A stretch of 45,885 nt of DNA from a phage. Below the pieces are notes generated by a model. It did no database searches. It saw nothing but the letters and a program-made list of their open reading frames with translations, and was not told the DNA's origin. The position numbers were made by a program, and so were the translations under genes. Positions 98 through 43,375 of the stretch are shown here, piece after piece. The stretch lies in NCBI GenBank assembly GCA_021146325.1, contig GCA_021146325.1_4321.1; one strand, given 5' to 3'. Position 1 is the stretch's first letter. The number at the start of each line of letters is the position of its first letter.

Positions 98-517
<420 letters not shown>

Positions 518-1250: not shown

Positions 1251-1284
1251 CTGTTAATTTTGTCTTTAGCAATTAGTGCTATTT
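1239..1284 (-). promoter_or_regulatory. promoter cassette copy (IR TAGCACTAATTGCTA, 22 bp, TATCAT, CATCGAAACGAAAGAGAG leader) driving the ERF gene
   Basis: IR core 1267..1281; TAG of the motif is the stop codon of the exonuclease gene. Confidence 0.6.
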
Positions 1285-2250
1285 TAGAAGTTCTTGATAC
1301 TGCTTACTTACCCACTCAGGAATCATCAAATCTTGCTCTGTAATTCCATTACTGTATCCAGGCCACTCATCAAGTTCCTTGCACTGCTTGTAAACAGCCA
1401 GAGCCTCTAAATATTGTAAGCGCCCAATGCGAAGCTGCTCATCTGTAAGTGTGTAGCACATAGGTAAGTAGGGCTCTGTTTTCTCCTGAGCCAGAAGTCG
1501 AACCACAACCTTACGCTTTTCGTTGAATGCTTTAACAAACAAATCGCGCTGAAGTGCCATCTTACACAGGTAACCATGGTCATAAGCTGACTTACCAAAT
1601 CCTCTAGGGCTTGCGTCTGCTGTTGTTTTATAGTCAGTAATGTAAACCACTCCATTAACAACATCCACGTGGTCAAGCCGAACCTTAACGCCGCAGCCGA
1701 GAATCTCACCAAAGATTGACAGCTCTTTCTGTGCTATTGGTGAATTAATTACCGCATCGTAAGCCGGAATATTGGTCAGAACTTCTCGCATTGCGATTAC
1801 CTTGTCGTAATCTTTAGCACTAACCAGCTCCTTGCCACTAATTAACGCCTCAGCGCTCTCCTGCTGCTCAATTAACCATTTAACCGGCCAATCCTCGCCA
1901 GACTTATACATCATCTCCACAAGCTCGTTATAACCCTTCCCTGACGTGCCGGAAACGCCAACTTTTTTAAGCGCTGCCGATAAAGCTGTTTGGCTAGTAA
2001 TCAATCCTTCCACTTCGTCAAAGTCAGTAGCTCGCATGTAAGTGGAATCGAACACTTCACGTTCTAGCATCATCGTATGTCCCAAAGTGCCAAACTTTAG
2101 TGCTGCACTTGAGTTGCTGCGCTGCTTAAATTTCCATTTTGCTGGAGAAGTAGCAAGAATCTCAGCCAGCGAAGAGCCAGAGATATGGTCTTTCTCTTCG
2201 TGATAGGATTCATTTGTTAGCTCGTCGTTCGTATAAACTTTAAATGTCAT
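1279..2250 (-). CDS. PD-(D/E)XK family exonuclease (RecB/Cas4-like), recombination partner of ERF
   Basis: 323-aa ORF with VYITDYKTT D-x-K nuclease motif; sits in the exo-SSAP-SSB module. Confidence 0.65.
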   Translation of the reverse strand: MTFKVYTNDELTNESYHEEKDHISGSSLAEILATSPAKWKFKQRSNSSAALKFGTLGHTMMLEREVFDSTYMRATDFDEVEGLITSQTALSAALKKVGVSGTSGKGYNELVEMMYKSGEDWPVKWLIEQQESAEALISGKELVSAKDYDKVIAMREVLTNIPAYDAVINSPIAQKELSIFGEILGCGVKVRLDHVDVVNGVVYITDYKTTADASPRGFGKSAYDHGYLCKMALQRDLFVKAFNEKRKVVVRLLAQEKTEPYLPMCYTLTDEQLRIGRLQYLEALAVYKQCKELDEWPGYSNGITEQDLMIPEWVSKQYQELLK

Positions 2251-22738: not shown

Positions 22739-22784
22739 CTATAAGCCATCCTTGGCGGCGCGTCTTTAGCAAAACGTGCTATTT
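22739..22784 (-). promoter_or_regulatory. promoter cassette copy (IR TAGCACGTTTTGCTA, 22 bp, TTATAG)
   Basis: IR core 22767..22781; its TAG is the TerL stop codon. Confidence 0.55.
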
Positions 22785-24398
22785 GATGCCAGCGAGGCGC
22801 ATCATCCTCGATTTAGGGTCTTCTGCAATGTTCAGTACCAGGTTGACAGCCATTGTCAAACAGTCTATCTGGTCATCGTGAACATGTGAATCATCTGCCG
22901 TGAATGCCGCAATCTCCGTTAGCAAGCCATTAAGCCAAGTAGCAGACTCCGGAAGGATTACGTTACCAGCTTTAATCTGCGGCAATGCACTCATTACGCG
23001 AGTCAGCTTATCGTTATCCGGAACGTACGGCTCGATAGGCGTTCGCATAACCCTTCCGGCTGATTGAATCAGGCCAATACCAGAGGCTTTCTTCTCGATG
23101 ATGATTTTACGAAGGATGCCATCTATCTGATTGGATGCCCTAGCCATCTTCTCGAAATCCAATAACTCAGCCTCGAGCTCAGGAGCTTCAAATTTACCGC
23201 GCCGCTGGTCAAGAAGATAAATCTTCCCATCCTTATAACCCCATAGCTGCATGACGCTAAAGTCGCTGTAACTTTTGGTTGTCATCGCAGTATCAAGGAC
23301 CATAAACCTGTAATCGTACTTAGCTGGCGGTCGCAGAGTGTCGCTAATGCGTTGAAGCCAGTCTACGTTAATCAGGTTGCCGCCAAGTGCTACTGGTTCT
23401 TGCTGATACTGGCTAAGGAATGTATAGCTATCAGAATCCCACATTGCAACTAGGTCGTGAACAGATTCCTTGCCAGGGAAATAGCTATAGTACCTAACAC
23501 CATCACGCTCAATATATTCGCTTGATAGAACGTCATCAATGAATTGCTGCTTAATCCAGTCAGGAAGCGTGTCGACGTAATCCTCAGTTACGAGCGCCGG
23601 TATCTTAATCAAGTCGAAGCTAATACCCATACCGCCATTCATCATGAACCACGTACTATCGTTCACATGAAGGCGCTGTTGGATAGAGATAATCGGCGTC
23701 GCCTTTCCTTTTACGGAGCTCGCCCTACGAGAGCGTATTGTATTCTTTAGCATCACGTGATTGTTAGCGCGAAAAACAGCAGAAAGCATGTCGGCTGGTT
23801 TGTCAAAATCATCTAACAGTACCGCACCACTATACGAATCGGTTATATATCCACCCCTCGCGCCTGTAATTTGGCCGCCAGTGGCTTTAGAGATTGACTC
23901 AAACCTGACCTTGCCATAGTCATCCAGGACCTGTAGCTCATCATCCTTACACGTACCAAACTTACATGGGAACAACTCCTGGAACTCAACAGACTTAATT
24001 AAGTCGCGCACACGCTTGGAGTTACGCTTAACCAGTGAGTCAGCATACGATATATTCAGGTTCCTTACCTTTCTCAACTTAACCATTGAGTAGGCTGGGA
24101 AGTGAATTGAGGCAATCTCTGTTTTTCCGCTACCAGGTGCTATGTTGATGATGGTATCTTTACGCTCACCCGCAATAATCTCATCAATGATTCTGCAAAG
24201 GTATTTATGATGCCAGTTTGGGATGTACCGCTCTCCCTGAGTTACCTGGAACCACACTCGCAAGAATCCCTCGAAGCTATGAGTGGATATCGCCTTAACC
24301 GCCATCTTTTCTGCTGGCGTCATTTCCTCCCAAACTAAATTAGCCATAATTTCACCAATCCAACCATCACGCCAATTAAGAATCCAGTTGTGAAGCAT
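22779..24398 (-). CDS. terminase large subunit
   Basis: 539-aa ORF with ATPase-like N-terminal region, at the head of the morphogenesis block. Confidence 0.85.
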   Translation of the reverse strand: MLHNWILNWRDGWIGEIMANLVWEEMTPAEKMAVKAISTHSFEGFLRVWFQVTQGERYIPNWHHKYLCRIIDEIIAGERKDTIINIAPGSGKTEIASIHFPAYSMVKLRKVRNLNISYADSLVKRNSKRVRDLIKSVEFQELFPCKFGTCKDDELQVLDDYGKVRFESISKATGGQITGARGGYITDSYSGAVLLDDFDKPADMLSAVFRANNHVMLKNTIRSRRASSVKGKATPIISIQQRLHVNDSTWFMMNGGMGISFDLIKIPALVTEDYVDTLPDWIKQQFIDDVLSSEYIERDGVRYYSYFPGKESVHDLVAMWDSDSYTFLSQYQQEPVALGGNLINVDWLQRISDTLRPPAKYDYRFMVLDTAMTTKSYSDFSVMQLWGYKDGKIYLLDQRRGKFEAPELEAELLDFEKMARASNQIDGILRKIIIEKKASGIGLIQSAGRVMRTPIEPYVPDNDKLTRVMSALPQIKAGNVILPESATWLNGLLTEIAAFTADDSHVHDDQIDCLTMAVNLVLNIAEDPKSRMMRLAGIK

Positions 24399-24465
24399 GT
24401 AGCTGCTATCATGTAATACGCCAATAATGCCTTAATCAATTATATCATACCAACCCGCCATGTTC

Positions 24466-24990
24466 TTACAGTTTGCTAATCACAGACTCCAGAGCTTCCT
24501 TCATCGTTTCGACGTCGTTAGCAGAAGAGTTATTGCTTATAGTGATCTCCTGCGGTTTGTCGATTCCAAGCTCCTTGGAAATCATGCCAGGGTTAACAAT
24601 GCCAGATGCTGCAAGCTGGTATTTCTGCTCGCGAATCACGGAATCAATGAATGCAATCACCTCATCATAACCAGCCGACTTCCTCCATTTCTCGATGGCG
24701 CTATGGGTGACACCGCAGTAAAGGCAGAATCCGGTTAGCGTGAAGACTCTTGGTTTGTGCACCAGGCTCTCTTTTACCACACCCTGGAAGCTGGCTGTCT
24801 CGATTGCCTTGATTGCCTGGTCCTCAGCCCATGAGAAGTATTTCACGGCGAATTCAAATAGCTGTTCGGGTGTCATGCTTCTGTTTTTGGCTAGCGTTGT
24901 AATGTCTGAGTACTTTTTATTGTACATGGCTTTAAAGTTGCCAGAGCGGACCTTTTCTTGCGCCTGACTGGTGAAGTTTTCGTCTTTCAT
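24466..24990 (-). CDS. terminase small subunit
   Basis: 174-aa ORF immediately upstream of TerL; strong RBS AAAGGAGG. Confidence 0.7.
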   Translation of the reverse strand: MKDENFTSQAQEKVRSGNFKAMYNKKYSDITTLAKNRSMTPEQLFEFAVKYFSWAEDQAIKAIETASFQGVVKESLVHKPRVFTLTGFCLYCGVTHSAIEKWRKSAGYDEVIAFIDSVIREQKYQLAASGIVNPGMISKELGIDKPQEITISNNSSANDVETMKEALESVISKL

Positions 24991-25017: not shown

Positions 25018-25026
25018 ATTATATCA
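25018..25026 (-). promoter_or_regulatory. extended -10 promoter (TGATATAAT) for the packaging/structural operon
   Basis: TGnTATAAT match on the minus strand between terminator and TerS. Confidence 0.4.
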
Positions 25027-28550: not shown

Positions 28551-28649
28551 ATTCGTTACTCCTGATTGGTTGCTCTTCGTTAAGATGAAACCATGGTATC
28601 ATGAATATACGCGTTATCAAGTGTTATGTTGTGTTTATATCTGCATTGG

Positions 28650-28935
28650 TTACGCTTTTTGACCTCTCAGCCCAGCTATAGCTGGTGTAATTACCCTGTG
28701 TAAGATTTTACGCGGATTCGCCGGGGGTATGCATATGTATCTATATAGATAAAATTAGTAGTTTTCATAGAAAAACTATCGACCCATCCATACGACCAAT
28801 CTACACCATATACATACATATATATAATAATAATAATAATATAGTAAAAGGTTGATATATATAGATATTATTATGTAACCATTGCGTAATCTAGCGTGGT
28901 AGGCGTGTATGATTCTTCGGAAGCGCACCTCATAT
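28650..28935. repeat. AT-rich non-coding element B, homologous to element A at 2585..2880
   Basis: palindrome CCAGCTATAGCTGG at 28672..28685, (ATA)n, 65-bp block 28815..28879 nearly identical to 2766..2827. Confidence 0.8.
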
Positions 28936-29036
28936 ACACACCATAACTTCGATAACGTGTATATCCAAATTGGCTCAGCAAGAATCAAAATCAACTTGTA
29001 TGGTAGTTCATCCACCATTTATTCACCCTCACATCA

Positions 29037-29136
29037 ATCATTGCAAATCCCGCAACAATCAAAAACATCATTGCATTCGATGCAATATTGTTATATGTGC
29101 AATAGTAAGATTAATCATTGCAATATCTGCAATAAC
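29037..29136. repeat. iteron-like array: three ATCATTGCA and four TGCAATA copies, with perfect palindrome ATTGCAT-TCG-ATGCAAT at 29070..29086
   Basis: read from sequence; directly upstream of the first rightward promoter cassette. Confidence 0.65.
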
Positions 29137-29149
29137 ATATAAATCCAAC

Positions 29150-29195
29150 GAATAGCACTTTTTGCTAAAGACATTTAGGTATTGCGGAGTTATGG
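29150..29195 (+). promoter_or_regulatory. promoter cassette copy (IR TAGCACTTTTTGCTA, 22 bp, TTATGG)
   Basis: IR core 29153..29167. Confidence 0.5.
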
Positions 29196-29222
29196 TTCAC
29201 TCATCAACAACGAGGAGAGAGA

Positions 29223-29409
29223 TATGAAACTTAAAGACGAAGCATTTGAGCAATTAAAGCAGGAATGTGCGCTGATTGGATTGAACAATGACTATACTGA
29301 TATGGTTTTACGCGGACGCATCGATATCGACCTTGCTAAGCAATTCCAGTCAGATGATGAATATATGTGCTGCGATGGCCTCGGCTGCGACGAATGTTTA
29401 CCATGGTAA
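29223..29409 (+). CDS. hypothetical protein with C-terminal Cys cluster
   Basis: 62 aa from ATG 29223 (RBS AGGAGAGAG); ends CCDGLGCDEC. Confidence 0.5.
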
Positions 29410-29420
29410 GGAGCCGAATA

Positions 29421-29612
29421 ATGAAAGTTAAGTGCTTAAATAATCTTAATGATGGAACCTGGGAATTCAGTAGTTGAAAGCATTACAGTTATGATGAAAT
29501 TTATGGTTACGTAGTTGGTGATAACTTCAAGCCAGTTTACTGCTACATTGAAAATGGCCTTGTTATTGCCGCTGTTAAGCGTCGATTGATTTTTGAAATT
29601 TTAGAGGATTAA
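29421..29612 (+). pseudogene. small ORF with one in-frame TGA at codon 19 (29475..29477)
   Basis: the frame is open for 18 codons before and 44 codons after the TGA; no start codon after it. Confidence 0.4.
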
Positions 29613-29613
29613 C

Positions 29614-29817
29614 ATGAAACTTCTTTGCACTAACATAATTGAAGACTTTAACGACGCCTTCAATAAGGGCTCTGAATACAACGCTACCGAGTTTAAAAAT
29701 GATATGTGCCTTGTTACCGGCGAACGTCCACACAAGCATCACGACACGTTCCAGGCGCTTAAATGCCTTGATTACGTAATCATCCACGGCATCGCAACTT
29801 TTAAGGTGATTGAATAA
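29614..29817 (+). CDS. hypothetical protein
   Basis: 67-aa ORF with RBS GAGGA. Confidence 0.5.
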   Translation: MKLLCTNIIEDFNDAFNKGSEYNATEFKNDMCLVTGERPHKHHDTFQALKCLDYVIIHGIATFKVIE

Positions 29818-29981
29818 TGCTTTTACCATCTGAGATAAACTATTTCGATCTGGAAATGATTAGTGCTTACAGCGGAAAGGGTTGGCCTTGCGGGGACTGG
29901 TTTAACGAGGACCTGCTTGAGTCTCACGAGATTATGTTGAAGGCAATTGAGAAGGCCAGAAGAAATAGCACTAATTGCTAA
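29817..29981 (+). CDS. small hypothetical protein ending RRNSTNC
   Basis: 54-aa ORF; 3' end lies in the promoter motif. Confidence 0.4.
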   Translation: MLLPSEINYFDLEMISAYSGKGWPCGDWFNEDLLESHEIMLKAIEKARRNSTNC

Positions 29982-30008
29982 AACTCACCGCCACGGATGG
30001 CGTATATT
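29963..30008 (+). promoter_or_regulatory. promoter cassette copy (perfect IR TAGCACTAATTGCTA, 22 bp, TATATT, CATCGAAACGAAAGAGAG)
   Basis: IR core 29966..29980. Confidence 0.6.
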
Positions 30009-30040
30009 TACTCCATCGAAACGAAAGAGAGCAAGAGATC

Positions 30041-30202
30041 ATGTTCGACAACTTTTATGACGCGATGGAAGAGGCGGTTTTCAGGGCGTCGATAGATGGT
30101 AAGATTTACGGTTTAGTTCAGAAGTTTGATAAGATTGTTGTGCGTATTGTGCGCAAATCAGTACCAAACAAATTCATGTGGACAACTAAGAGATTAAAAT
30201 AA
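30041..30202 (+). CDS. small hypothetical protein
   Basis: 53 aa from ATG 30041, downstream of the cassette leader. Confidence 0.45.
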   Translation: MFDNFYDAMEEAVFRASIDGKIYGLVQKFDKIVVRIVRKSVPNKFMWTTKRLK

Positions 30203-30591
30203 TGACTACTACGATAACCAAAAATTTCATTAGCAACGACAACAAGCTATTTAAAGCTCGCGTTAAAAAGATTCACCAGTGGGTTAACGGTGTCGCTGAG
30301 GAAGTTGAATTTGAGCAAATCAAAAAAGACGGCAAATGGATCAACCTGGAAGAACGTGGAAAATACATTAAAACCAAAACTCTTTACTGCACAAAGGTTA
30401 ACCATAAGTCTGGCGTTAAGAAAGACTTCAAAGAAGGTAAGCGATACCAGGTCAACATGCATAGCTTACTTGGTCAGTCAGCTGGATACATTTACGATGA
30501 AGATGGCAACGCCTGGCAGCTATATCGCAGCGAAGATGTTGGCTTTTATACGTTGTGTGAAACTTACCACTTTGAGGCTCAATACAAATGA
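30202..30591 (+). CDS. hypothetical protein
   Basis: 129-aa ORF. Confidence 0.5.
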   Translation: MTTTITKNFISNDNKLFKARVKKIHQWVNGVAEEVEFEQIKKDGKWINLEERGKYIKTKTLYCTKVNHKSGVKKDFKEGKRYQVNMHSLLGQSAGYIYDEDGNAWQLYRSEDVGFYTLCETYHFEAQYK

Positions 30592-30758
30592 AATTATACA
30601 TTGTAAGTGGTTGCACACACTATGATGGAAGCGAAGTGATTGCCGCTTTCGATGAAGAATTCAAAGCACAGGAGTTTAAATATAACAAAGAAATATCTTC
30701 AGAAAATCACTTTGACTACTACAAGATAGATTGCATCTTACTAAATAGCACTAATTGA
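30588..30758 (+). CDS. small hypothetical protein ending LLNSTN
   Basis: 56-aa ORF; 3' end lies in the promoter motif. Confidence 0.4.
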   Translation: MKLYIVSGCTHYDGSEVIAAFDEEFKAQEFKYNKEISSENHFDYYKIDCILLNSTN

Positions 30759-30788
30759 TAATGCATTATAAGCGGCTATTGATATAAT
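30743..30788 (+). promoter_or_regulatory. promoter cassette copy (IR TAGCACTAATTGATA, 22 bp, TATAAT)
   Basis: IR core 30746..30760. Confidence 0.55.
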
Positions 30789-30817
30789 GGCCGCTCATAA
30801 CAACACGGAGAGAAGTA

Positions 30818-32401
30818 ATGTTTGATTTCAACGAAGATAAACTATCTGTTGAGCAGATTATGGCAATCGCTGCCAATGACAACCTACCACCGCTTCGCGT
30901 GGCTATTAATGCCAATGGCTATCGACAGTCTCAATCGTTCTGGAAAGCACCTGTCGAGATTGATACAGGTAATGATAAGTATCCAGTAATCTCACTCGGT
31001 AATGATATTGATGTTGTTGGTAAGCTATCGGCTAATATCGCTCGCTCGGTTCAGTTCCCTGAGTCGTCAGCTTACATGCACTTTCTTGGTTGTGTTTCTG
31101 CTGCAATGCTTGGGCGTTTTACTGTCGAGTATCATGGAACCCAACAGCCAACATCTTTGTACGTGGTAACAAGTCAGCCGCCTTCAACTGGTAAATCAGC
31201 CATTAACTCGCTATCAATTGCGCCGATGATTGCTGAGACTGAGCGGTTGAATGAAGTACGTAAACGTGATCGAAAAAAGATTATGGCTAAACTGTCCGCT
31301 CTGGCTAAAGAGATGAAGCAGGAAAAATCACCTTCTGAAATGGCTTCACTTTTTGAGGAGAAGGAGGATTTAGAGGAGAAGCTCGAGAAGCTATGCGATA
31401 TAGTATTCCCTGTCTCCGATACTACTCCGGAAGGTCTTGCGCGAATCAACAATCGCCAGGGTAGTTTTGCGGTAATCTCTGATGAGGCTACTAGCGTCAA
31501 CTCACTGTTAGGCATGACTTACGGTGATGGCTCGAAGAAAACGAACAGCGAGCTCGTGCTGAAAGCATGGGATGCAGGTAATGTGTCAATTGCCCGTGCG
31601 AACGCAGAAAATAACATGAGCTTTGTGGCTATGGGATGCATCTCCGTAATTGCTCAGGATGAAACAATCAATGCCATTATGAATGCTGGTGCGCGTGGTA
31701 TTGGTGTATCTGAGCGTTTCCTTCTGGTGCGTGAAAAATCATTTCTTGGCGACCGTGTATTTGTTGATGAAAATGGTGATTCAACCTATGAGGCTATTGA
31801 TGGCGGCCTGAAAGCAGACTATTTCCGTCTTGTTCATGAGATTATGAATGAAGTTGAAGTGAAACTTACTGTAAGCGCGTCATCAATGCGTTACCTTAAC
31901 CGCGCTCGTCAAGAGATGGAGCCTCATCTTGGTGATGGTGGCAAGTATTCTCACACAATGTTGCGCGGTGCTCTTGGTAAGTTTGATAAGCAAGCAATCC
32001 GCATCGCTTCTGTTCTGCACGTAATTCGTAACTGGTTCTCACCAGCCGGATCCAGCCCTCAAAAGTCAAGAGAGATTGAACTGGATACAATGCAGGAAGC
32101 GGTTATGATTTTCAACGAACTAAGCAAGACTTATTTATCATCCGCTAGTGCTGCTGGTCATGCTGGTGACAATGCCGAGATGAACAAGCTGGTTGATATC
32201 CTGATTAAGCAGGGCAAGAATGGTAAAGGTGTTGTTGGTGTTCGCTCGTTGTATGAGGCTGCACGCAAGGTTAAACCTTTTGAAGGTCAGGCTGGAATTA
32301 TGACTCGCATTAAGGACCACTTGATTCCTATGCTTGATGAGAAAAACTACACATGCCTGATTGGTGATAAAATTTACATTAATCCACGATTGCTGGGGTA
32401 A
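30818..32401 (+). CDS. P-loop NTPase-like protein of unknown function, possibly replication-associated
   Basis: 527-aa ORF with Walker A-like SQPPSTGKSA. Confidence 0.5.
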   Translation: MFDFNEDKLSVEQIMAIAANDNLPPLRVAINANGYRQSQSFWKAPVEIDTGNDKYPVISLGNDIDVVGKLSANIARSVQFPESSAYMHFLGCVSAAMLGRFTVEYHGTQQPTSLYVVTSQPPSTGKSAINSLSIAPMIAETERLNEVRKRDRKKIMAKLSALAKEMKQEKSPSEMASLFEEKEDLEEKLEKLCDIVFPVSDTTPEGLARINNRQGSFAVISDEATSVNSLLGMTYGDGSKKTNSELVLKAWDAGNVSIARANAENNMSFVAMGCISVIAQDETINAIMNAGARGIGVSERFLLVREKSFLGDRVFVDENGDSTYEAIDGGLKADYFRLVHEIMNEVEVKLTVSASSMRYLNRARQEMEPHLGDGGKYSHTMLRGALGKFDKQAIRIASVLHVIRNWFSPAGSSPQKSREIELDTMQEAVMIFNELSKTYLSSASAAGHAGDNAEMNKLVDILIKQGKNGKGVVGVRSLYEAARKVKPFEGQAGIMTRIKDHLIPMLDEKNYTCLIGDKIYINPRLLG

Positions 32402-32404
32402 TTT

Positions 32405-32746
32405 ATGTACCTGCTCGACCTGTATAATTTCTGCGAAGGATACAAGAACTTCAACCGCCAGCACCTGGCAAGATTCATCTATAAGCACAAGGATTGCGCA
32501 AGGATGGCCAAGGCTGCCGGGGTTGATGAAAGGTATTTTGCCTCAAGTTGCTCGAAGGAGTTTATGGCGAGAATGCTTACGGCTGGGTATCTTGATGGAG
32601 TTAATGGAGTGTACTGGTGTAAGGGTTCAATTAAGCGACCATTTCAGTTTGAATTCATGAGCCTTGAAGGTAGGTCCAGTGATTACGTCAGTGAGATGAT
32701 GAACATAGCCAACATGAGTGATGACGAATTGTTTGCACAAAAATAG
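32405..32746 (+). CDS. hypothetical protein
   Basis: 113-aa ORF, last gene before a plus-strand terminator. Confidence 0.45.
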   Translation: MYLLDLYNFCEGYKNFNRQHLARFIYKHKDCARMAKAAGVDERYFASSCSKEFMARMLTAGYLDGVNGVYWCKGSIKRPFQFEFMSLEGRSSDYVSEMMNIANMSDDELFAQK

Positions 32747-32772
32747 CCCCATTACGGGGCTTTTTTGTTTTT
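32744..32772 (+). terminator. rho-independent terminator
   Basis: hairpin GCCCC-ATTAC-GGGGC then TTTTTTGTTTTT. Confidence 0.7.
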
Positions 32773-35255: not shown

Positions 35256-35301
35256 ATTTTGCCTCAATCCTTTGAGGCTTTATTAACAAAAAGTGCTACT
35301 T
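35256..35301 (-). promoter_or_regulatory. promoter cassette copy (IR TAGCACTTTTTGTTA, 22 bp, CAAAAT)
   Basis: IR core 35284..35298. Confidence 0.45.
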
Positions 35302-36433
35302 AGAACATCTCAGGGCGACAAATAAATCGACCAACCTCACCAAAACGCTTATGGTAAACGATTACCGCTGCTTGACGCATTGAGCGCCATCCTCCATTAG
35401 CTGAGTAGGCATCTGGCGCGCCAAGCTGACCATGAACTTCATCGATACCCAGGTTTGTTTCTGTAATTTTCTGACTATGCCAGTGGCCCGAGTGTGTATA
35501 GACATATTCGCTGTTACCGAATAGTTTACGAAAGTCTGTAGCCATTACTGTAAGTCGAGTTTCAGCTTTTCGCATCTGGTGACCATGAGTATAACCAATC
35601 AATGTTGAGCCGAAGCTTGTCATCAGCATTGCTGCTGGGCTTACGTCGACAGTAATTCGCTCCTCGTCTTCATAGAATGCCGCCAATGCTGCACGCAACC
35701 AAACCATCCCAGCTTCGTCGTGATTTCCACTTATTACTTTAATATCAATGATTTGGTGCTTCTCAAGCATCCTTGAAACCGCACGACGCACTGAGCGGAT
35801 TGCTACGTAAACCAATTTAGCATAGCGACTGTCGCTGTCTAAGATATGTCCTGATGCTGGTGTTTTAGCCTCTAGAGAGTCGTAATGCAGAAAATCACCC
35901 CCCAAAACTAATGTCGCATTTCTTGATTTAGGAGCCTTATCTACAGCATAATCAAAGAAGCTATTCATTACCTTCTCTGCTGTTGCAGTGTCGTAGTTTT
36001 CACCGCACTCATGCTTATGAGCCATTGCGCCAATGTGAAGGTCGAAAACAGGATACATAGCCATAGTGTCATCGTCAAAATCAATGTCTGGGCACTCGCT
36101 GGCAATTGCCTTTGGTAAATCAGAACAGAAGGCTTCACGCGCTTGCTCAAGCAGAATCTCAAGGCGTTCATTATCAACGCTTGTCTTAACCCACCGGATT
36201 TTCTCATTCCCTTCCGCATCAATCATGGTAGAAGTGCCTTTTACCATGTATCCATCTGGCACTAGCTTCTTGATACCTTCATTACCATGCCCAACACCAC
36301 TCTTGGCTAACTTGCTGCGACGAAGCTCAACGTTGCGAATGTTCATGCCGTACTTCTCTGCAATTGCCTTGTTAGTCAGGCCATTCTTCAATTCTTCAGT
36401 TAACTGTTCATTTGTAATCTTTGCTACTGCCAT
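35300..36433 (-). CDS. calcineurin-like metallophosphoesterase with N-terminal HTH-like segment
   Basis: motifs DLH, GGDFLHYD, GNHDE, GHQ, GHWH; N-terminal LTNKAIAEKYGMNIRNVELRR. Confidence 0.65.
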   Translation of the reverse strand: MAVAKITNEQLTEELKNGLTNKAIAEKYGMNIRNVELRRSKLAKSGVGHGNEGIKKLVPDGYMVKGTSTMIDAEGNEKIRWVKTSVDNERLEILLEQAREAFCSDLPKAIASECPDIDFDDDTMAMYPVFDLHIGAMAHKHECGENYDTATAEKVMNSFFDYAVDKAPKSRNATLVLGGDFLHYDSLEAKTPASGHILDSDSRYAKLVYVAIRSVRRAVSRMLEKHQIIDIKVISGNHDEAGMVWLRAALAAFYEDEERITVDVSPAAMLMTSFGSTLIGYTHGHQMRKAETRLTVMATDFRKLFGNSEYVYTHSGHWHSQKITETNLGIDEVHGQLGAPDAYSANGGWRSMRQAAVIVYHKRFGEVGRFICRPEMF

Positions 36434-38220: not shown

Positions 38221-39930
38221 TCAATCCTCCATCGTAAATGATTTGTTGGCGATAATATCTTGAGACTTCTGGTTTTTACGGTGTGTGATTCTCAATGGGG
38301 CACGGAATAGATGTGCATTTGTCATAATCATTCTAGCATTACGCAATCTGCCAATTCTGAATGCCTCAGTCCTGTTATCGATGTGTGTTGAGCAGAAAGC
38401 CTTCCATTTAACAGAGCAAACGCGATGGTCTGATTCAGGGAAGAATGTTTCATAAGCTCGGAATCTGTCACCACTGTGAGCCATAACCTCATATGAAGCA
38501 ATAATCCCTGACTGGTTCTTTGTTAACCCAATCTTGAAGTCATAAACTCGCAACCAGTCCCCCTTACGATACATTTTTCCTGATAACTTAGCATTCGGGT
38601 CTATGAGCATCTCACCACAGCATCTGCAATTCTTAGCTGCAATATCATTCTTCTCACCGCATCCTTTCTTGATGATAGCTTTGGTCTGTGGGTCCGCTAT
38701 ATCTTCACACAGTCTAAACTGAAAGAAGTGCTCGCAACGCTTACCGTCAATTACATTATTACAACGCCGTGCGAACGGAGAGTTCTCATAAGAACATGCC
38801 GGGCATACCCTAGGTTCATCACCTCCTTTCCTTGATGACTTAAACTTCTGGTCCTGAACTTCTTCTATAATTGGGTCAAAGTAAAGCTCTGCCATATCGT
38901 CAAGCGTTCCGGCGAAATCGAGAACAACATGGTCTTCTTTTACCATCCCTGAATCCTTGTGTTTTTTCTTAAGAATTCGCATACCACGACCAAGCAACTG
39001 AATGAGTAGAGTAATGCTACCAACCTTCCTCAGGATAATGCTTGTATCCCACGGGGGGCAGTTTACGCCAGTTGTGAGGCAACCAATCTGAAATATGAAC
39101 TTATATTCTCCGTTAGCTGCCTTCTCAAGTATCTCTCTACGCTTCTTCTCACCAGTGGAGTTGGTAACTATCGCCCAAGTAACACCTTCTGGAAGTGCGG
39201 CTGCCGCCTCCTCGCAATGCTGTTTGCCAGCGCAAGTTACCAATGCAGCATTCCTTGTTTCCATAAACTTAGCAGCAAATCCCATTATCTTTTGTGTCAT
39301 CGTTTGGTTTTCGTGAATCTTTGCAGCCATCGCATCCATTTCTTTCTTGCTGAAGTCCTTAACCCCATCACTTCCATCAGGAGTGAACTCACTAAGGTCG
39401 TAGCCCAAATCACCAACTTCACCGTAGACAGTAGGAACAACGAACCCCAAGTCAACAAGGTAGCTGGTTGGCACTTGCATTACAGTTTTGCGCCAGAATC
39501 CACGGACATTTGGGTTACTAACTACAATGTGGTCGTTGTTACGGTACGGGCTACCAGTTAACCCAAAGATACGAAGTTCGCGACCGTACTTCTCCTTGCA
39601 TCGACGCTTCATTTCGGTAATGATTAACGTGTATTGCGCGCGACCAGTGCCAAGAAGCCCGGTATTCACACCATCCTTAAAGACCATCTCACCCTTCTTC
39701 GTGCTCATCTGCTCGAATGTTTCCTCATTCTCTTCAGCTTCTACGATATCCATATGGTCCACCATGTGGCAATTATGTGCCACGACCCCGTCAGCAATGA
39801 AATTATGGTGCTCAGGCATCTCTATATCCCAAACAAGTTCCTTGCCAATGGGTGAGATGTCTTTAATTTTGCTTGATTTTGTATTCCACGCCATTTTCCA
39901 TGTGCTTACTAATTCTCTTAAAAAACTCAT
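38221..39930 (-). CDS. SF2 helicase C-terminal gene: C-intein (53 aa) plus C-extein
   Basis: own ATG 39930 with RBS GAGGT; intein block G HNFIADGVVAHN then Cys; C-extein has helicase-like motifs GLTGSP and QLLGRGMR and zinc-finger-like Cys clusters. Confidence 0.75.
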   Translation of the reverse strand: MSFLRELVSTWKMAWNTKSSKIKDISPIGKELVWDIEMPEHHNFIADGVVAHNCHMVDHMDIVEAEENEETFEQMSTKKGEMVFKDGVNTGLLGTGRAQYTLIITEMKRRCKEKYGRELRIFGLTGSPYRNNDHIVVSNPNVRGFWRKTVMQVPTSYLVDLGFVVPTVYGEVGDLGYDLSEFTPDGSDGVKDFSKKEMDAMAAKIHENQTMTQKIMGFAAKFMETRNAALVTCAGKQHCEEAAAALPEGVTWAIVTNSTGEKKRREILEKAANGEYKFIFQIGCLTTGVNCPPWDTSIILRKVGSITLLIQLLGRGMRILKKKHKDSGMVKEDHVVLDFAGTLDDMAELYFDPIIEEVQDQKFKSSRKGGDEPRVCPACSYENSPFARRCNNVIDGKRCEHFFQFRLCEDIADPQTKAIIKKGCGEKNDIAAKNCRCCGEMLIDPNAKLSGKMYRKGDWLRVYDFKIGLTKNQSGIIASYEVMAHSGDRFRAYETFFPESDHRVCSVKWKAFCSTHIDNRTEAFRIGRLRNARMIMTNAHLFRAPLRITHRKNQKSQDIIANKSFTMED

Positions 39931-40910
39931 CTTGTGCCGACCTCGTTGTTATTGATACTGAGTAAAGCTCTCTCTTTTTCTTGCCGCCAATATAGCTTCT
40001 AACCTTAACTCCGTCATTAGCAATAAATGCTATTAGCGCATCAGCTACTGATTGAACTTCACGCCTGCTAAATGATTCGGTGTGGATTTCTACAACCCTC
40101 TTCCCTGAGCTTACAGTGCAATGACCATCATCACCAAAGTAAGCAGCCCAACCAACTGGATCAAGCTCTCTGCATATCTTTCCAATATCGTAACCATCCT
40201 TAGAATTTCCGTACTTATCAGCATATGAATCCAGAACTTTCGTACATGATGTTGATACGCAAAACCAGTTGTCGCCAAATCCAGGGTTTTTCTTCTCCCT
40301 GTATCTAGGGTTTAGTTTTGCAAACCTTTCAACCTTGCTTAGTGCGTGCTCCTTATTTCCAATATTCCAAGATGGCCTATGCGTTCCTTTTCTGTATTTT
40401 TAATCAAGCAACCATCACCAGCCATTGCCGCAAGAATGTTTTGATGTAAAAAGTCATCAACCTCCATTGATGGGTTGACGGTTGAATTATGATGCCCCGT
40501 TCTGTAATCCAAATAGAAATCGAAAGGGTTCTTAAGAAGTACGCCTAACCCCTTGCTTGAATGCGGCATAACTTTTTCACCACAGCCACACTTGCACGCA
40601 GGAGCTTTTTCGTAAATTTGTCCTGCGAGCCGTCTAGCGACAGATTCATCCCAATACAAAGTTTTCCCGCTCCGACCCAGCAGCCGTTCGAATAAAGTTT
40701 GTGTGTACTCGTGCATTTTATTTCCTCTCCGCTTTCTAATTTAATTGATGATACATGTCTTACACCATTAGTAAAAACTCTTTTTGGCTTATGATAGAAG
40801 TAATCACCAGTGCTTTCGTTTATGCATTTTATTTTATGATTGATAAGGTCTTCGCTATCAATCCTCATCATCCCTGAATCGGTGGTTATCATCGTGTCTC
40901 CAGTTAAGCA
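39772..40910 (-). mobile_element. split intein in helicase motif II: N-intein 40548..40910, endonuclease-like remnants, C-intein 39772..39930
   Basis: blocks A (CLTGDTMI), B (IKCTSTHKLY) and G (HNFIADGVVAHN-C); N-intein ends in a stop after 121 residues; intein DNA is 1139 bp, not a multiple of 3. Confidence 0.7.
39863..40740 (-). pseudogene. homing-endonuclease-like remnant split over two reading frames between the intein halves
   Basis: frame 1 ORF 40339..40716 (Cys cluster CKCGCG; ...AMAGDG...), frame 2 open 39863..40399 without a start codon (...IAFIANDG...); family not assignable by eye. Confidence 0.4.
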
Positions 40911-41354
40911 CTCATCTATCGCGATAACAGCAGGAGCATAGTCACCAAGCCCCTTAAACAAGCCGTTAGCAGCCGTTCCCTCACTAGCCACTATGGTTGG
41001 ATAGTAAACTGATTTAACGTTAAGGCCAGCGCAATAGACGCTATTACGGATGCCGAAATTACGAAGTTCCTCTGCGTTCTGGCTGATAATCTCTGACTGG
41101 CGAGATAGGACCATGTAAGGAAGGCCAAGCTGTTCCATTCGTTTCCCAATCATGGCGAGAATAATCGTCTTGCCAGCCGAAACCGATAGGTCTGCTATGA
41201 ATGGCGCTTCGTACTTGCCAATAGCCTTTCCGATTGCGTCAAATGTCACGCACTGGAATGGGTATGGTGTGATTTCTCCGAACTGATAATCATTTTGAAT
41301 CTGCTTGATTTTATCTTGGTCAAAGTTTGCTACTAAGCGTTCTACTGGAAGCAT
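40545..41354 (-). CDS. SF2 helicase N-terminal gene: N-extein (Walker A SVSAGKT ... IAIDE) plus N-intein
   Basis: 269-aa ORF; the extein junction would rebuild IAIDE-CHMV, a DECH box. Confidence 0.75.
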   Translation of the reverse strand: MLPVERLVANFDQDKIKQIQNDYQFGEITPYPFQCVTFDAIGKAIGKYEAPFIADLSVSAGKTIILAMIGKRMEQLGLPYMVLSRQSEIISQNAEELRNFGIRNSVYCAGLNVKSVYYPTIVASEGTAANGLFKGLGDYAPAVIAIDECLTGDTMITTDSGMMRIDSEDLINHKIKCINESTGDYFYHKPKRVFTNGVRHVSSIKLESGEEIKCTSTHKLYSNGCWVGAGKLCIGMNLSLDGSQDKFTKKLLRASVAVVKKLCRIQARG

Positions 41355-41975: not shown

Positions 41976-42455
41976 ATGAACTGGCATGATTATTTTTACT
42001 ATGTAGATGGCAAATTGCATTGGAAGATTAGCACTGCAAGACGTGTTAAGGTTGGCGATGAGTGCAACTCACTATCTACATCTGGCTATTACAAAGTGTC
42101 TGTTAATGGCTTTAGGACTTATGTACATAGAGTTGTGTGGGAGATGTTTAATGGATAACTTCAAAATGGCGACTACATTGATCATATAAACCATAACAAA
42201 TTAGATAACAGAATAGAAAACCTAAGAGTAACAACAAATCAAGGTAACTCAAGAAATTGCAAGCTTAGCGTTTTATCAACAACTGGTTATTGTGGAGTGG
42301 CAAAGCTAAATCACGGAAAATTTAAGGCTCACATCACGGTTGACGGCAAGCAGCTACACCTTGGTAACTTCGATACTCCAGAACGGGCGTATAAAGTAAG
42401 AATTGAAGCAGAGAGAAAATACAACTTTCACGAAAATAACGGGTTAAGCAAATGA
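41976..42455 (+). pseudogene. HNH homing endonuclease with AP2-like DNA-binding domain, interrupted by in-frame TAA at 42156..42158
   Basis: ...VHRVVWEMFNG [TAA] LQNGDYIDHINHNKLDNRIENLRVTTNQ...GYCGVAKLNHGKFKAHITVDGKQLHLGNFDTPERAY; same frame before and after the stop. Confidence 0.6.
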
Positions 42456-43375
42456 ATTACGATAAGAATGAAGTTATACCTAAGATGGCCGGATTGTGGA
42501 AATCATTTTATGTAAAGGAACTTGGTTGGAATGATAGACACATAAGTAAGAAGCACGGACCATGCCCATGCTGCTTTGGCACTGACAGATTCAGATTTAC
42601 CGACGAAATAGGCAGTGAAAAAGGAAATGGCGCGGCAGTTTGTTCGAAATGCGGAAGTGACTCCGGTATAGGATGGGTCATGAAGTGCACCGGATTGTCC
42701 TTCGCCGATTCAGTAAATTTGCTTGGTGACTGGCTGAACTTAACACCAATTGAGGTTATAGTTAAAGCAAACAAGCAAGCCTCGAGAACTAAGCGTTACA
42801 AAATGGGCGCTCAAGTCGACCATGAGAAAGTCCTGGAGGTTATGGAGAGAACTAAGAGAGTGGAATCGAGTCCACTCACGACATACGAGGGTATTTATGA
42901 CGCGTTTGGTTTTGATGTTGGTATAGCTAAAAATGGTTCAATGATTCACGCAATCCCTTGTTCGATGGTTTATGAAGATGGGCTTAGTGATGAGTTCTGT
43001 AACGTAATGTTTATTGATGAGGATTCAAATGTTAAGTTCCTTGCTGGTGATTACACTCGTGATTCTGTTTCCGTTATTGGTTCTAAGCAGGATGATAGTT
43101 ATACTTATGTTGTTGACAATTATATTGATGGCATACGTGTTCACCTTGCTACTGGTGGGCGCGAAGTGTTTGTTGCTTTCTCCTGTTACAATATGGAGAT
43201 GGTTATCCACCGCGACAAGTCAAGGAAGTTCAGAATTGCTTGCCGTGATTCTGATAGCGATATACTCGCTGTTGCTGACGATAGGGGTGTTGATGTTGTA
43301 GTTCCTAATGACGGTGAGTCATTTAAAACAGGCATACGAAAGAAAGTGTACAAAGCAAACGACTTGCTAAACTAA
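42452..43375 (+). CDS. DNA primase (zinc-binding plus catalytic domains)
   Basis: N-terminal Cys4 zinc-finger-like CPCCFG...CSKCG, 307 aa; upstream of the helicase in the replication region. Confidence 0.7.
   Translation: MNYDKNEVIPKMAGLWKSFYVKELGWNDRHISKKHGPCPCCFGTDRFRFTDEIGSEKGNGAAVCSKCGSDSGIGWVMKCTGLSFADSVNLLGDWLNLTPIEVIVKANKQASRTKRYKMGAQVDHEKVLEVMERTKRVESSPLTTYEGIYDAFGFDVGIAKNGSMIHAIPCSMVYEDGLSDEFCNVMFIDEDSNVKFLAGDYTRDSVSVIGSKQDDSYTYVVDNYIDGIRVHLATGGREVFVAFSCYNMEMVIHRDKSRKFRIACRDSDSDILAVADDRGVDVVVPNDGESFKTGIRKKVYKANDLLN

Follow-up and report, generated by a model that had tools for sequence, protein, structure and literature searches.

The DUF3987 proteins of phages were linked to the MCM helicases by profile–profile comparison in 2016, in a study that found them frequently fused or adjacent to AEP or DnaG primases, described a winged helix-turn-helix at their C terminus and predicted that they are replicative helicases of superfamily 6 (SF6) (Kazlauskas et al. 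2016, PMC4889955); the same prediction was repeated two years later (Kazlauskas et al. 2018, PMC5862659). The earlier study also reported that DnaG-type primases in phage genomes are always accompanied by a replicative helicase, and that the dns protein of phage N4, a DUF3987–AEP fusion, is essential for replication (PMC4889955). The sole biochemical precedent for the family dates from 2025: AgaPH, a PriCT–DUF3987 protein from a Seonamhaeicola mobile element, is an oligomeric, ATP/dATP-dependent 5'→3' helicase, which binds its own primase-polymerase and loses its activity upon mutation of Walker A or Walker B (PMC11724360). Here we describe a 527-amino-acid (aa) member of this family, encoded at positions 30818..32401 of a phage DNA of 45,885 nucleotides (NCBI GenBank assembly GCA_021146325.1, contig GCA_021146325.1_4321.1; this entire stretch is referred to as the window). 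We conclude that the protein is probably the replicative DNA helicase of the phage itself and would be an SF6 AAA+ ATPase that forms rings and is distantly MCM-like. Because the prediction for the family has been in the literature since 2016, current understanding is unchanged by this assignment.

The 527-aa protein shares with AgaPH the DUF3987 domain, with both Walker motifs (A and B), and a small C-terminal domain (PMC11724360). The two differ in their remaining parts, AgaPH having an N-terminal PriCT domain and an AEP primase-polymerase as its partner, whereas the phage protein has a helical N-terminal domain and a presumed DnaG-type partner. N4 dns is likewise a DUF3987 module in a lytic coliphage; however, it is fused to a C-terminal AEP primase, whereas in the window the helicase stands by itself and a DnaG-type primase is present. 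A functional analogue is the gp-alpha protein of phage P4, in which a DnaG-type primase is combined with a ring helicase of the AAA+ class and a domain at the C terminus that binds DNA, and the T1-type primase has been annotated as similar to the alpha primase of P4 and phi-R73. In gp-alpha, however, all parts are fused and the helicase belongs to superfamily 3 (SF3; D5-like). Foldseek matches of the 527-aa protein to SF3 were marginal (E 0.18–1: monkeypox virus (MPXV) E5, 0.18; adeno-associated virus (AAV) Rep40, 0.24; African swine fever virus (ASFV) PrimPol, 0.8–1.0), and an SF3 assignment (D5, P4-alpha or Rep) was rejected. Cch of SCCmec (DUF927) and related MCM-like helicases of mobile elements belong to another Pfam family and gave a weaker structural match than MCM.

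A DUF3987 protein conserved in T1-like phages

The preliminary description of the locus, made from the sequence alone, had reported a 527-aa open reading frame (ORF) with the P-loop SQPPSTGKSA (residues 119–128, nt 31172–31201), and both are borne out. A chance ORF was rejected. Compared with its orthologue in phage TR2 (UXQ90343.1, 'DUF3987 domain-containing protein'), the protein shows 97.9% identity over its full length, whereas the DNA is only 87.9% identical, which indicates purifying selection on the ORF. In addition, a tblastn search found homologues in 923 phage records, with a coverage of at least 80% in 903 of them. The ribosome-binding site is located 7–8 nt before the ATG, and its GGAG is invariant in nine relatives.

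We assign the protein to Pfam DUF3987, as it has the hidden Markov model match, the catalytic residues and the C-terminal winged helix of this family. The model (PF13148; cutoff 27 bits) is matched with 140.5 bits and an E value of 1e-40 over residues 81–433, covering model positions 3–352 (350 of 364). All 32 homologues that we aligned also match DUF3987, and the protein matches PHROG 2373, 'DNA helicase', with an E value of 2.6e-255; a search of NCBIfam with the 527-aa protein gave no match. Using a profile of the 32 homologues, 6041 cluster representatives (50% identity clusters) were retrieved at E ≤ 1e-3 from 1.84 billion proteins. A DnaB-like helicase of superfamily 4 (SF4) was rejected, there being no DnaB_C match in the Pfam scan and the fold matching AAA+.

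Judged by its sequence, the window is the genome of a T1-like siphovirus, a coliphage of the Drexlerviridae, Braunvirinae, near Christensenvirus. By homology, the 527-aa ORF is a Drexlerviridae core gene of an already known and already annotated kind. Its T1 counterpart, gp9 (ST9, YP_003936.1), is 57% identical over the full length, and further Drexlerviridae orthologues include IME542 gp18 and AugustePiccard bas01_0057. The RefSeq product name 'DNA helicase' is already carried by the orthologues of T1, IME542, ACG-M12, CEB_EC3a and DTL, so that the 'unknown function' of the preliminary description was an overstatement. Its guess of a replication or recombination ATPase gains support, as a replication ATPase, from the profile, fold and context evidence; the profile and structure-prediction searches did not place the protein in a family unrelated to nucleic-acid metabolism. 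Many GenBank records and listed Drexlerviridae orthologues read 'hypothetical protein' or 'DUF3987 domain-containing protein', and the label 'DUF3987-family (MCM-like, SF6) putative replicative helicase' would be of value for annotation in place of 'hypothetical protein'.

Predicted structure and conserved motifs

An AlphaFold2 monomer model generated from the 32-sequence alignment has a predicted local distance difference test score (pLDDT) of 89.6 and a predicted template modelling score (pTM) of 0.87. It consists of an all-helical N-terminal domain, an α/β ATPase core (aa ~98–310), an AAA+ lid and a C-terminal helical linker with a winged helix (Table 1). When the fold was compared using Foldseek, 31 of the top 32 matches were MCM2–7 or archaeal MCM proteins, with Cdc6/Orc1 at rank 9; MCM8/9, RavA and ComM are also among the fold matches. 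These results independently reproduce the published SF6 assignment.

Conservation was assessed in the 32 aligned homologues and in 147 cluster representatives aligned to the family profile, the counts given here being of representatives with a residue at the position concerned. Six residues, K126, E223, R260, Q280, R300 and K388, are each present in at least 99% of the representatives. Apart from the P-loop, the preliminary description had found no motif that it could name; in fact, a Walker B-like motif, a β-hairpin with R260, IAQDE, S-E-R-F and RGxxGKxD are all conserved.

The P-loop is a deviant Walker A. Q120, P121, P122, S123, G125, K126 and S127 are invariant in the 32 homologues, whereas T124 varies; over the representatives the pattern is Q-P-[PSA]-[SG]-x-G-K-[ST], with K126 in 142 of 142, Q120 in 137 of 142 and S/T127 essentially invariant. 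The helix that follows the P-loop is extended into a long antiparallel hairpin of two helices (aa 124–166 and 172–191; pLDDT ~87–96), which is typical of the family because it lies inside the Pfam DUF3987 match. In the Walker B-like motif, E223 (144 of 144) stands at the end of strand 217–221, whereas position 222, where Walker B motifs normally have Asp, is variable (D 55, A 53, S 28).

The β-hairpin before the sensor-1 strand contains R260 (145 of 145); by analogy with MCM, we take it for a putative pre-sensor-1 hairpin, which would touch DNA inside the pore. Q280 of the sensor-1 region is found in 142 of 143 representatives. In the S-E-R-F motif, R300 (142 of 142) is a putative trans-acting arginine finger, the MCM counterpart being an 'SRF' motif; E299 is present in 133 of 147 representatives, and G296 is also essentially invariant. 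K388 of the lid is found in 141 of 141 and H401 is essentially invariant. By their positions in the model, these elements would correspond to Walker A and B, a pre-sensor-1 hairpin, sensor 1, an arginine finger and a lid/sensor-2 element. The C-terminal winged helix is a putative DNA- or origin-binding domain, and binding of the primase or another partner is a possible role of the N-terminal domain.

The archaeal and eukaryotic MCM proteins (SF6) resemble the 527-aa protein in their P-loop, xxP[GS]T[AG]KS (the MCM Walker A consensus being GDPxxxKS), in the putative S-(E)-R-F arginine-finger motif and in the C-terminal winged helix. They differ in that the 527-aa protein has a long helical hairpin after the P-loop and in that the Walker B Asp is not conserved in the DUF3987 family. 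Moreover, the tested member of the family moves 5'→3', whereas MCM moves 3'→5'. The 527-aa protein may have either polarity.

Evidence for a replicative role

The strongest evidence here for the job of a replicative helicase comes from two full-length relatives that carry additional domains. In one of these (P0182), a DnaG CHC2 zinc-ribbon primase stands in front as the fusion partner and the N-terminal domain is retained, the match covering profile positions 11–521. In the other (P0214), the fusion partner in front is a DnaB N-terminal domain, and the DUF3987 module therefore takes the place of the DnaB C-terminal ATPase domain. Adjacency provides a similar picture: in metagenomic relatives with 36–38% identity, a primase and a helicase of superfamily 2 (SF2) stand, in this order, after the helicase gene. 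One of them (L007) has a primase that is recognisably of the DnaG type, and there a gene for a DUF3799 exonuclease follows that of the SF2 helicase. In two others (L008 and L009), the primase position is taken by two ORFs, one of 75 aa and an unassigned one of 310 aa, the latter probably a primase. From these fusions and adjacencies we infer that the DnaG-type primase of the window is the partner of the helicase.

The fold alone would also fit an origin-binding initiator or helicase loader resembling Orc1/Cdc6 or DnaA/DnaC, which would melt the origin and recruit the host DnaB: the AlphaFold2 model combines AAA+ with a C-terminal winged helix, and Cdc6/Orc1 appears at Foldseek rank 9. The reported dependence of T1 on elongation functions of its host would also agree with such a role. 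We consider this role unlikely, however, given the β-hairpin with its invariant Arg before sensor 1, as in translocase clades, the position of the module behind the DnaB N-terminal domain, where the DnaB ATPase would stand, and the proven helicase activity of one family member (PMC11724360).

An accessory motor for recombination, repair or fork restart, or some other translocase, would leave the fork to the SF2 helicase or to DnaB. The replication of T1-like phages is thought to be recombination-dependent, the phage has a recombination module with a PDDEXK exonuclease in addition to the SF2 helicase, and the fold matches include proteins other than replicative helicases, namely MCM8/9, RavA and ComM. 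Yet the fusions and adjacencies of the family are to primases and a DnaB N-terminal domain and not to recombinases, and the published comparative analysis places DUF3987 in replication and finds a replicative helicase alongside every DnaG-type primase in phage genomes (PMC4889955), which makes an accessory motor improbable. A non-replicative role, for example as an anti-defence or host-takeover ATPase, might be suggested by the position of the gene, which closes a block of small ORFs without known function (29182..30758) that look like typical early host-takeover genes, but it is very improbable, as family, fold and context all point towards DNA replication, the gene is a full-length core gene across the Drexlerviridae and beyond with its catalytic residues intact, and a defence-system role was rejected because PADLOC gave no match.

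Several points weigh against reading the protein as an MCM-like replicative helicase. Searches of the sequences of solved structures (PDB), made with the single sequence and with the 32-sequence profile (phmmer and hmmsearch), gave only insignificant matches and no MCM chain, so that the relatedness to MCM is visible at the level of the fold only. A Pfam scan of the 32 homologues at E ≤ 10 showed no MCM (PF00493), AAA or Mg-chelatase match, and the N-terminal OB-fold/zinc domain of MCM is absent, residues 1–97 being predicted as all-helical. Because of these two differences, the 527-aa protein, although it is predicted to fold like MCM, should not be filed as a member of the MCM family. The roles given to individual residues rely on where these lie in the sequence and in the predicted secondary structure, and not on an inspected superposition. 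In the genome, the primase lies ~10 kb from the helicase gene and is not adjacent to it, and the same phage encodes the SF2 helicase as a second helicase. The literature searched yielded no experiment on a DUF3987 protein of the T1 type, and in a recent re-annotation of TLS, a relative of T1, the replication proteins considered are the primase and the SF2 helicase alone, the latter being treated as the helicase of replication (PMC11447400). The dependence of the phage on its host has also to be considered. In classical genetic work, T1 DNA synthesis was reported to need the host dna genes for elongation (Bourque and Christensen, 1980), and if dnaB were among these genes, gp9 would not be the sole helicase at the fork.

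A replicative helicase of this kind would act as follows. The gene would be transcribed together with a small winged-helix gene from an extended −10 sigma-70 promoter, and the protein would oligomerise, probably into a hexamer. ATP would be bound at the subunit interfaces, with the deviant P-loop (K126/S127) and E223 acting in cis and R300, the arginine finger, in trans. The R260 β-hairpin would line the central channel, through which it would pull single-stranded DNA (ssDNA). Positioning of the ring on the phage DNA would fall to the C-terminal winged helix, perhaps assisted by the gp10-like product of the small gene. The helicase would then work with the phage DnaG-type primase and, subsequently, with host DNA polymerase III. 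The host enzyme is included because T1-like phages lack a polymerase gene: none has been found in T1 and TLS (PMC11447400; the T1 annotation agrees), and none is present among the replication and recombination genes of the window.

We tentatively propose, as a possibility that is still rather doubtful, that T1-like phages assemble a hybrid replisome in which an MCM-like AAA+ ring, with a P-loop specific to the family (QPPSxGKS) and a Walker B without a conserved Asp, opens the fork for a bacterial DnaG-type primase and host DNA polymerase III. Both the winged helix of the ring and the co-translated 113-aa product of the small gene would serve to place it on DNA, an SSB-like acidic SDDELF motif of the latter acting as adaptor, and expression might be controlled via the hairpin or palindrome around the −10 element. 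If this were true, the T1 protein would offer a tractable system in E. coli for asking how a motor of MCM fold acquired DnaB-like polarity, given that the tested family member moves 5'→3', opposite to MCM. More generally, the T1-type protein is an accessible representative, from E. coli phages, of a large family (6041 representatives) with one biochemically tested member. It bears on the question of which T1 helicase drives the fork, on how a motor of MCM fold works with a DnaG primase and DNA polymerase III, and on polarity.

Table 1 Features of the putative helicase gene, its operon and other replication and recombination genes of the window
Feature	Position	Strand	Basis or remark
Promoter region of the helicase operon	30755..30796	+	Sequence reading; conserved in 9 Drexlerviridae
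−35 element, AATGCA	30760-30765	+	Weak; 17-nt spacer
6-bp inverted repeat AGCGGC / GCCGCT around −10	30771-30776 / 30790-30795		Folds as ssDNA, −9.3 kcal/mol, z = −3.6
Extended −10 element, TGATATAAT	30780-30788	+
Ribosome-binding site (Shine–Dalgarno), GGAGAG	30807..30812	+
Putative replicative helicase gene, ATG ORF, 527 aa	30818..32401	+	ORF list of the window
All-helical N-terminal domain, aa 1-97	30818..31108	+	AlphaFold2
Deviant Walker A / P-loop QPPSTGKS, aa 120-127	31175..31198	+	Alignments
Long antiparallel helical hairpin extending the P-loop helix, aa 124-191 (68 residues)	31187..31390	+	AlphaFold2
Walker B-like VISDE (hhSxE), aa 219-223	31472..31486	+	Alignments
β-hairpin before sensor-1 strand, aa 255-270	31580..31627	+	AlphaFold2, strands 255-258 and 267-270
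Sensor-1 region VIAQDE, aa 277-282 (IAQDE 278-282)	31646..31663	+	End of strand 273-279
S-E-R-F motif, aa 298-301	31709..31720	+	Precedes strand 301-305
AAA+ lid / helical domain, aa 329-405, with RGxxGKxD (383-390) and H401	31802..32032	+	AlphaFold2, alignments
C-terminal helical linker and winged helix, aa 451-521	32168..32380	+	AlphaFold2
113-aa winged-helix protein, co-transcribed with the helicase gene	32405..32746	+	Orthologue of T1 gp10, PHROG 2794
Bidirectional intrinsic terminator closing the helicase operon and convergent lysis genes	32745-32761	both	Terminator scan
SbcD-like phosphoesterase	35300..36433
SF2 helicase (T1 gp22 homologue), split in two ORFs	38221..41354	−
DnaG-type primase, zinc ribbon of primase-helicase type	42452..43375	+	Pfam Zn_Ribbon_Prim E 2e-9; PHROG 510 'DNA primase' E 1e-91
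PDDEXK exonuclease, recombination module	1279..2250

Promoter, terminator and partner gene

A strong cassette promoter at 30743..30788 and a terminator following the 527-aa ORF had been claimed in the preliminary description, and these claims stand in part. The promoter element itself is upheld, in the form of an extended −10 that is kept in nine relatives, but the −35 is weak. Transcription is predicted to start near 30795–30797. A better hexamer, TTGATA, sits 22 nt away from the −10, and a two-hexamer promoter scan of the window did not report the helicase promoter. Across the nine phages, the seven with a poor −35 have the TG of the extended −10, whereas the two that lack it have a better −35, AAGACA, with a 16-nt spacer. 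The term 'cassette' does not apply: the exact hairpin-embedded unit is unique in the window, and a repeated promoter cassette was rejected, as only the 9-nt TGATATAAT recurs there. The pattern GCGG-N13-17-CCGC occurs at three other sites of the window, apparently unrelated to the helicase promoter. Lastly, the terminator does not directly follow the 527-aa ORF, since the 113-aa ORF begins 4 nt past the stop codon and the terminator lies behind that ORF.

The window contains three copies of TGNTATAAT against 2.3 expected by chance, a count that alone proves nothing, and all three are located ~30–45 nt upstream of gene starts. Two more exact TGATATAAT extended −10 elements are found on the − strand (24439..24447 and 25018..25026), each ~30–45 nt before the start of an ORF: one of 539 aa (22779..24398) and one of 174 aa (24466..24990), which from the T1-like gene order are probably the large and small terminase genes. 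The presence of TGATATAAT before three gene starts suggests a shared type of promoter.

The −10 hexamer of the helicase promoter sits in the loop of a GC stem of 5–6 bp formed by the inverted repeat. The innermost pair of this stem varies (CG, GC, UA or UG) and is paired in nine of nine sequences, a single covarying pair that is suggestive only. The repeat could be an operator palindrome or form a hairpin in read-through transcripts. At the other end of the operon, the terminator hairpin is conserved with compensatory changes in five phages, and the T1 annotation has a terminator at the equivalent place.

The 113-aa protein is 53% identical to T1 gp10, and its gene is translationally coupled to the helicase gene. 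Near the C terminus it has a near-invariant acidic motif, SD(D/E)ELF (aa 105–110), and some of its relatives extend 10–20 residues past this motif. SD(D/E)ELF is reminiscent of SSB and T7 gp2.5, whose C-terminal tails serve to recruit partners in the replisome.

Genome context

The gene order around the helicase is that of T1: a block of small ORFs, gp9 (the 527-aa ORF), gp10 (the 113-aa ORF), the terminator, and the convergent spanin, endolysin and holin genes. T1 gp9 and its orthologues thus share the gene and its neighbours with the window, namely the gp10-like winged-helix gene, the bidirectional terminator and the convergent lysis genes, and at the protein level they differ by sequence divergence only. 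In T1, however, an HNH endonuclease gene is inserted directly upstream of gp9, whereas in the window the conserved promoter abuts the helicase gene. The replication and recombination genes of the window are dispersed across the genome (Table 1).

An origin, or iterons, were sought inside and beside the helicase gene, and only short two-copy repeats and no tandem arrays were found; there is therefore no evidence for an origin at this gene. Elsewhere, divergent gene blocks are separated by a 630-bp AT-rich non-coding gap (28551..29181). Short repeats, both direct and inverted, occur in this gap, for example two copies of ATCAATCATTGCAA and ATATATAGATA palindromes, as does a sigma-70-like site (10 of 12) at 28800-28828; the gap is a candidate early promoter region, possibly an origin region. 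A 139-aa ORF (98..517, − strand) contains a hexanucleotide tandem repeat (122..186, CTGTTG × 11), which reads CAACAG on the coding strand and would give a Gln-rich stretch.

A split-intein helicase in the same genome

The SF2 helicase of the window is encoded in two parts. In the N-terminal part (40545..41354, − strand, 269 aa), the extein ends at helicase motif II, '...AIDE', after which ~120 aa of N-intein follow (CLTGDTM...). The C-terminal part (38221..39930, − strand, 569 aa) starts with a 53-aa C-intein (...FIADGVVAHN) followed by 'CHMV', and the predicted joining of the two halves would restore DECH. When concatenated, the halves match Pfam Intein_splicing with 48 bits against a cutoff of 35.8. 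A free-standing LAGLIDADG endonuclease gene lies between the halves and overlaps them; phage AN_ECEAS has an intact copy (284 aa), and a 1-bp deletion near 40392 breaks the gene in the window. Going by its predicted products, the gene is an instance of the 'fractured gene' or split-intein arrangement of Dassa et al. 2009 (PMC2677866). Within the phage collection, this arrangement was found only in phages ES and AN_ECEAS (99.4% nucleotide identity), and TR1 and AugustePiccard encode an uninterrupted SF2 helicase of 664 aa.

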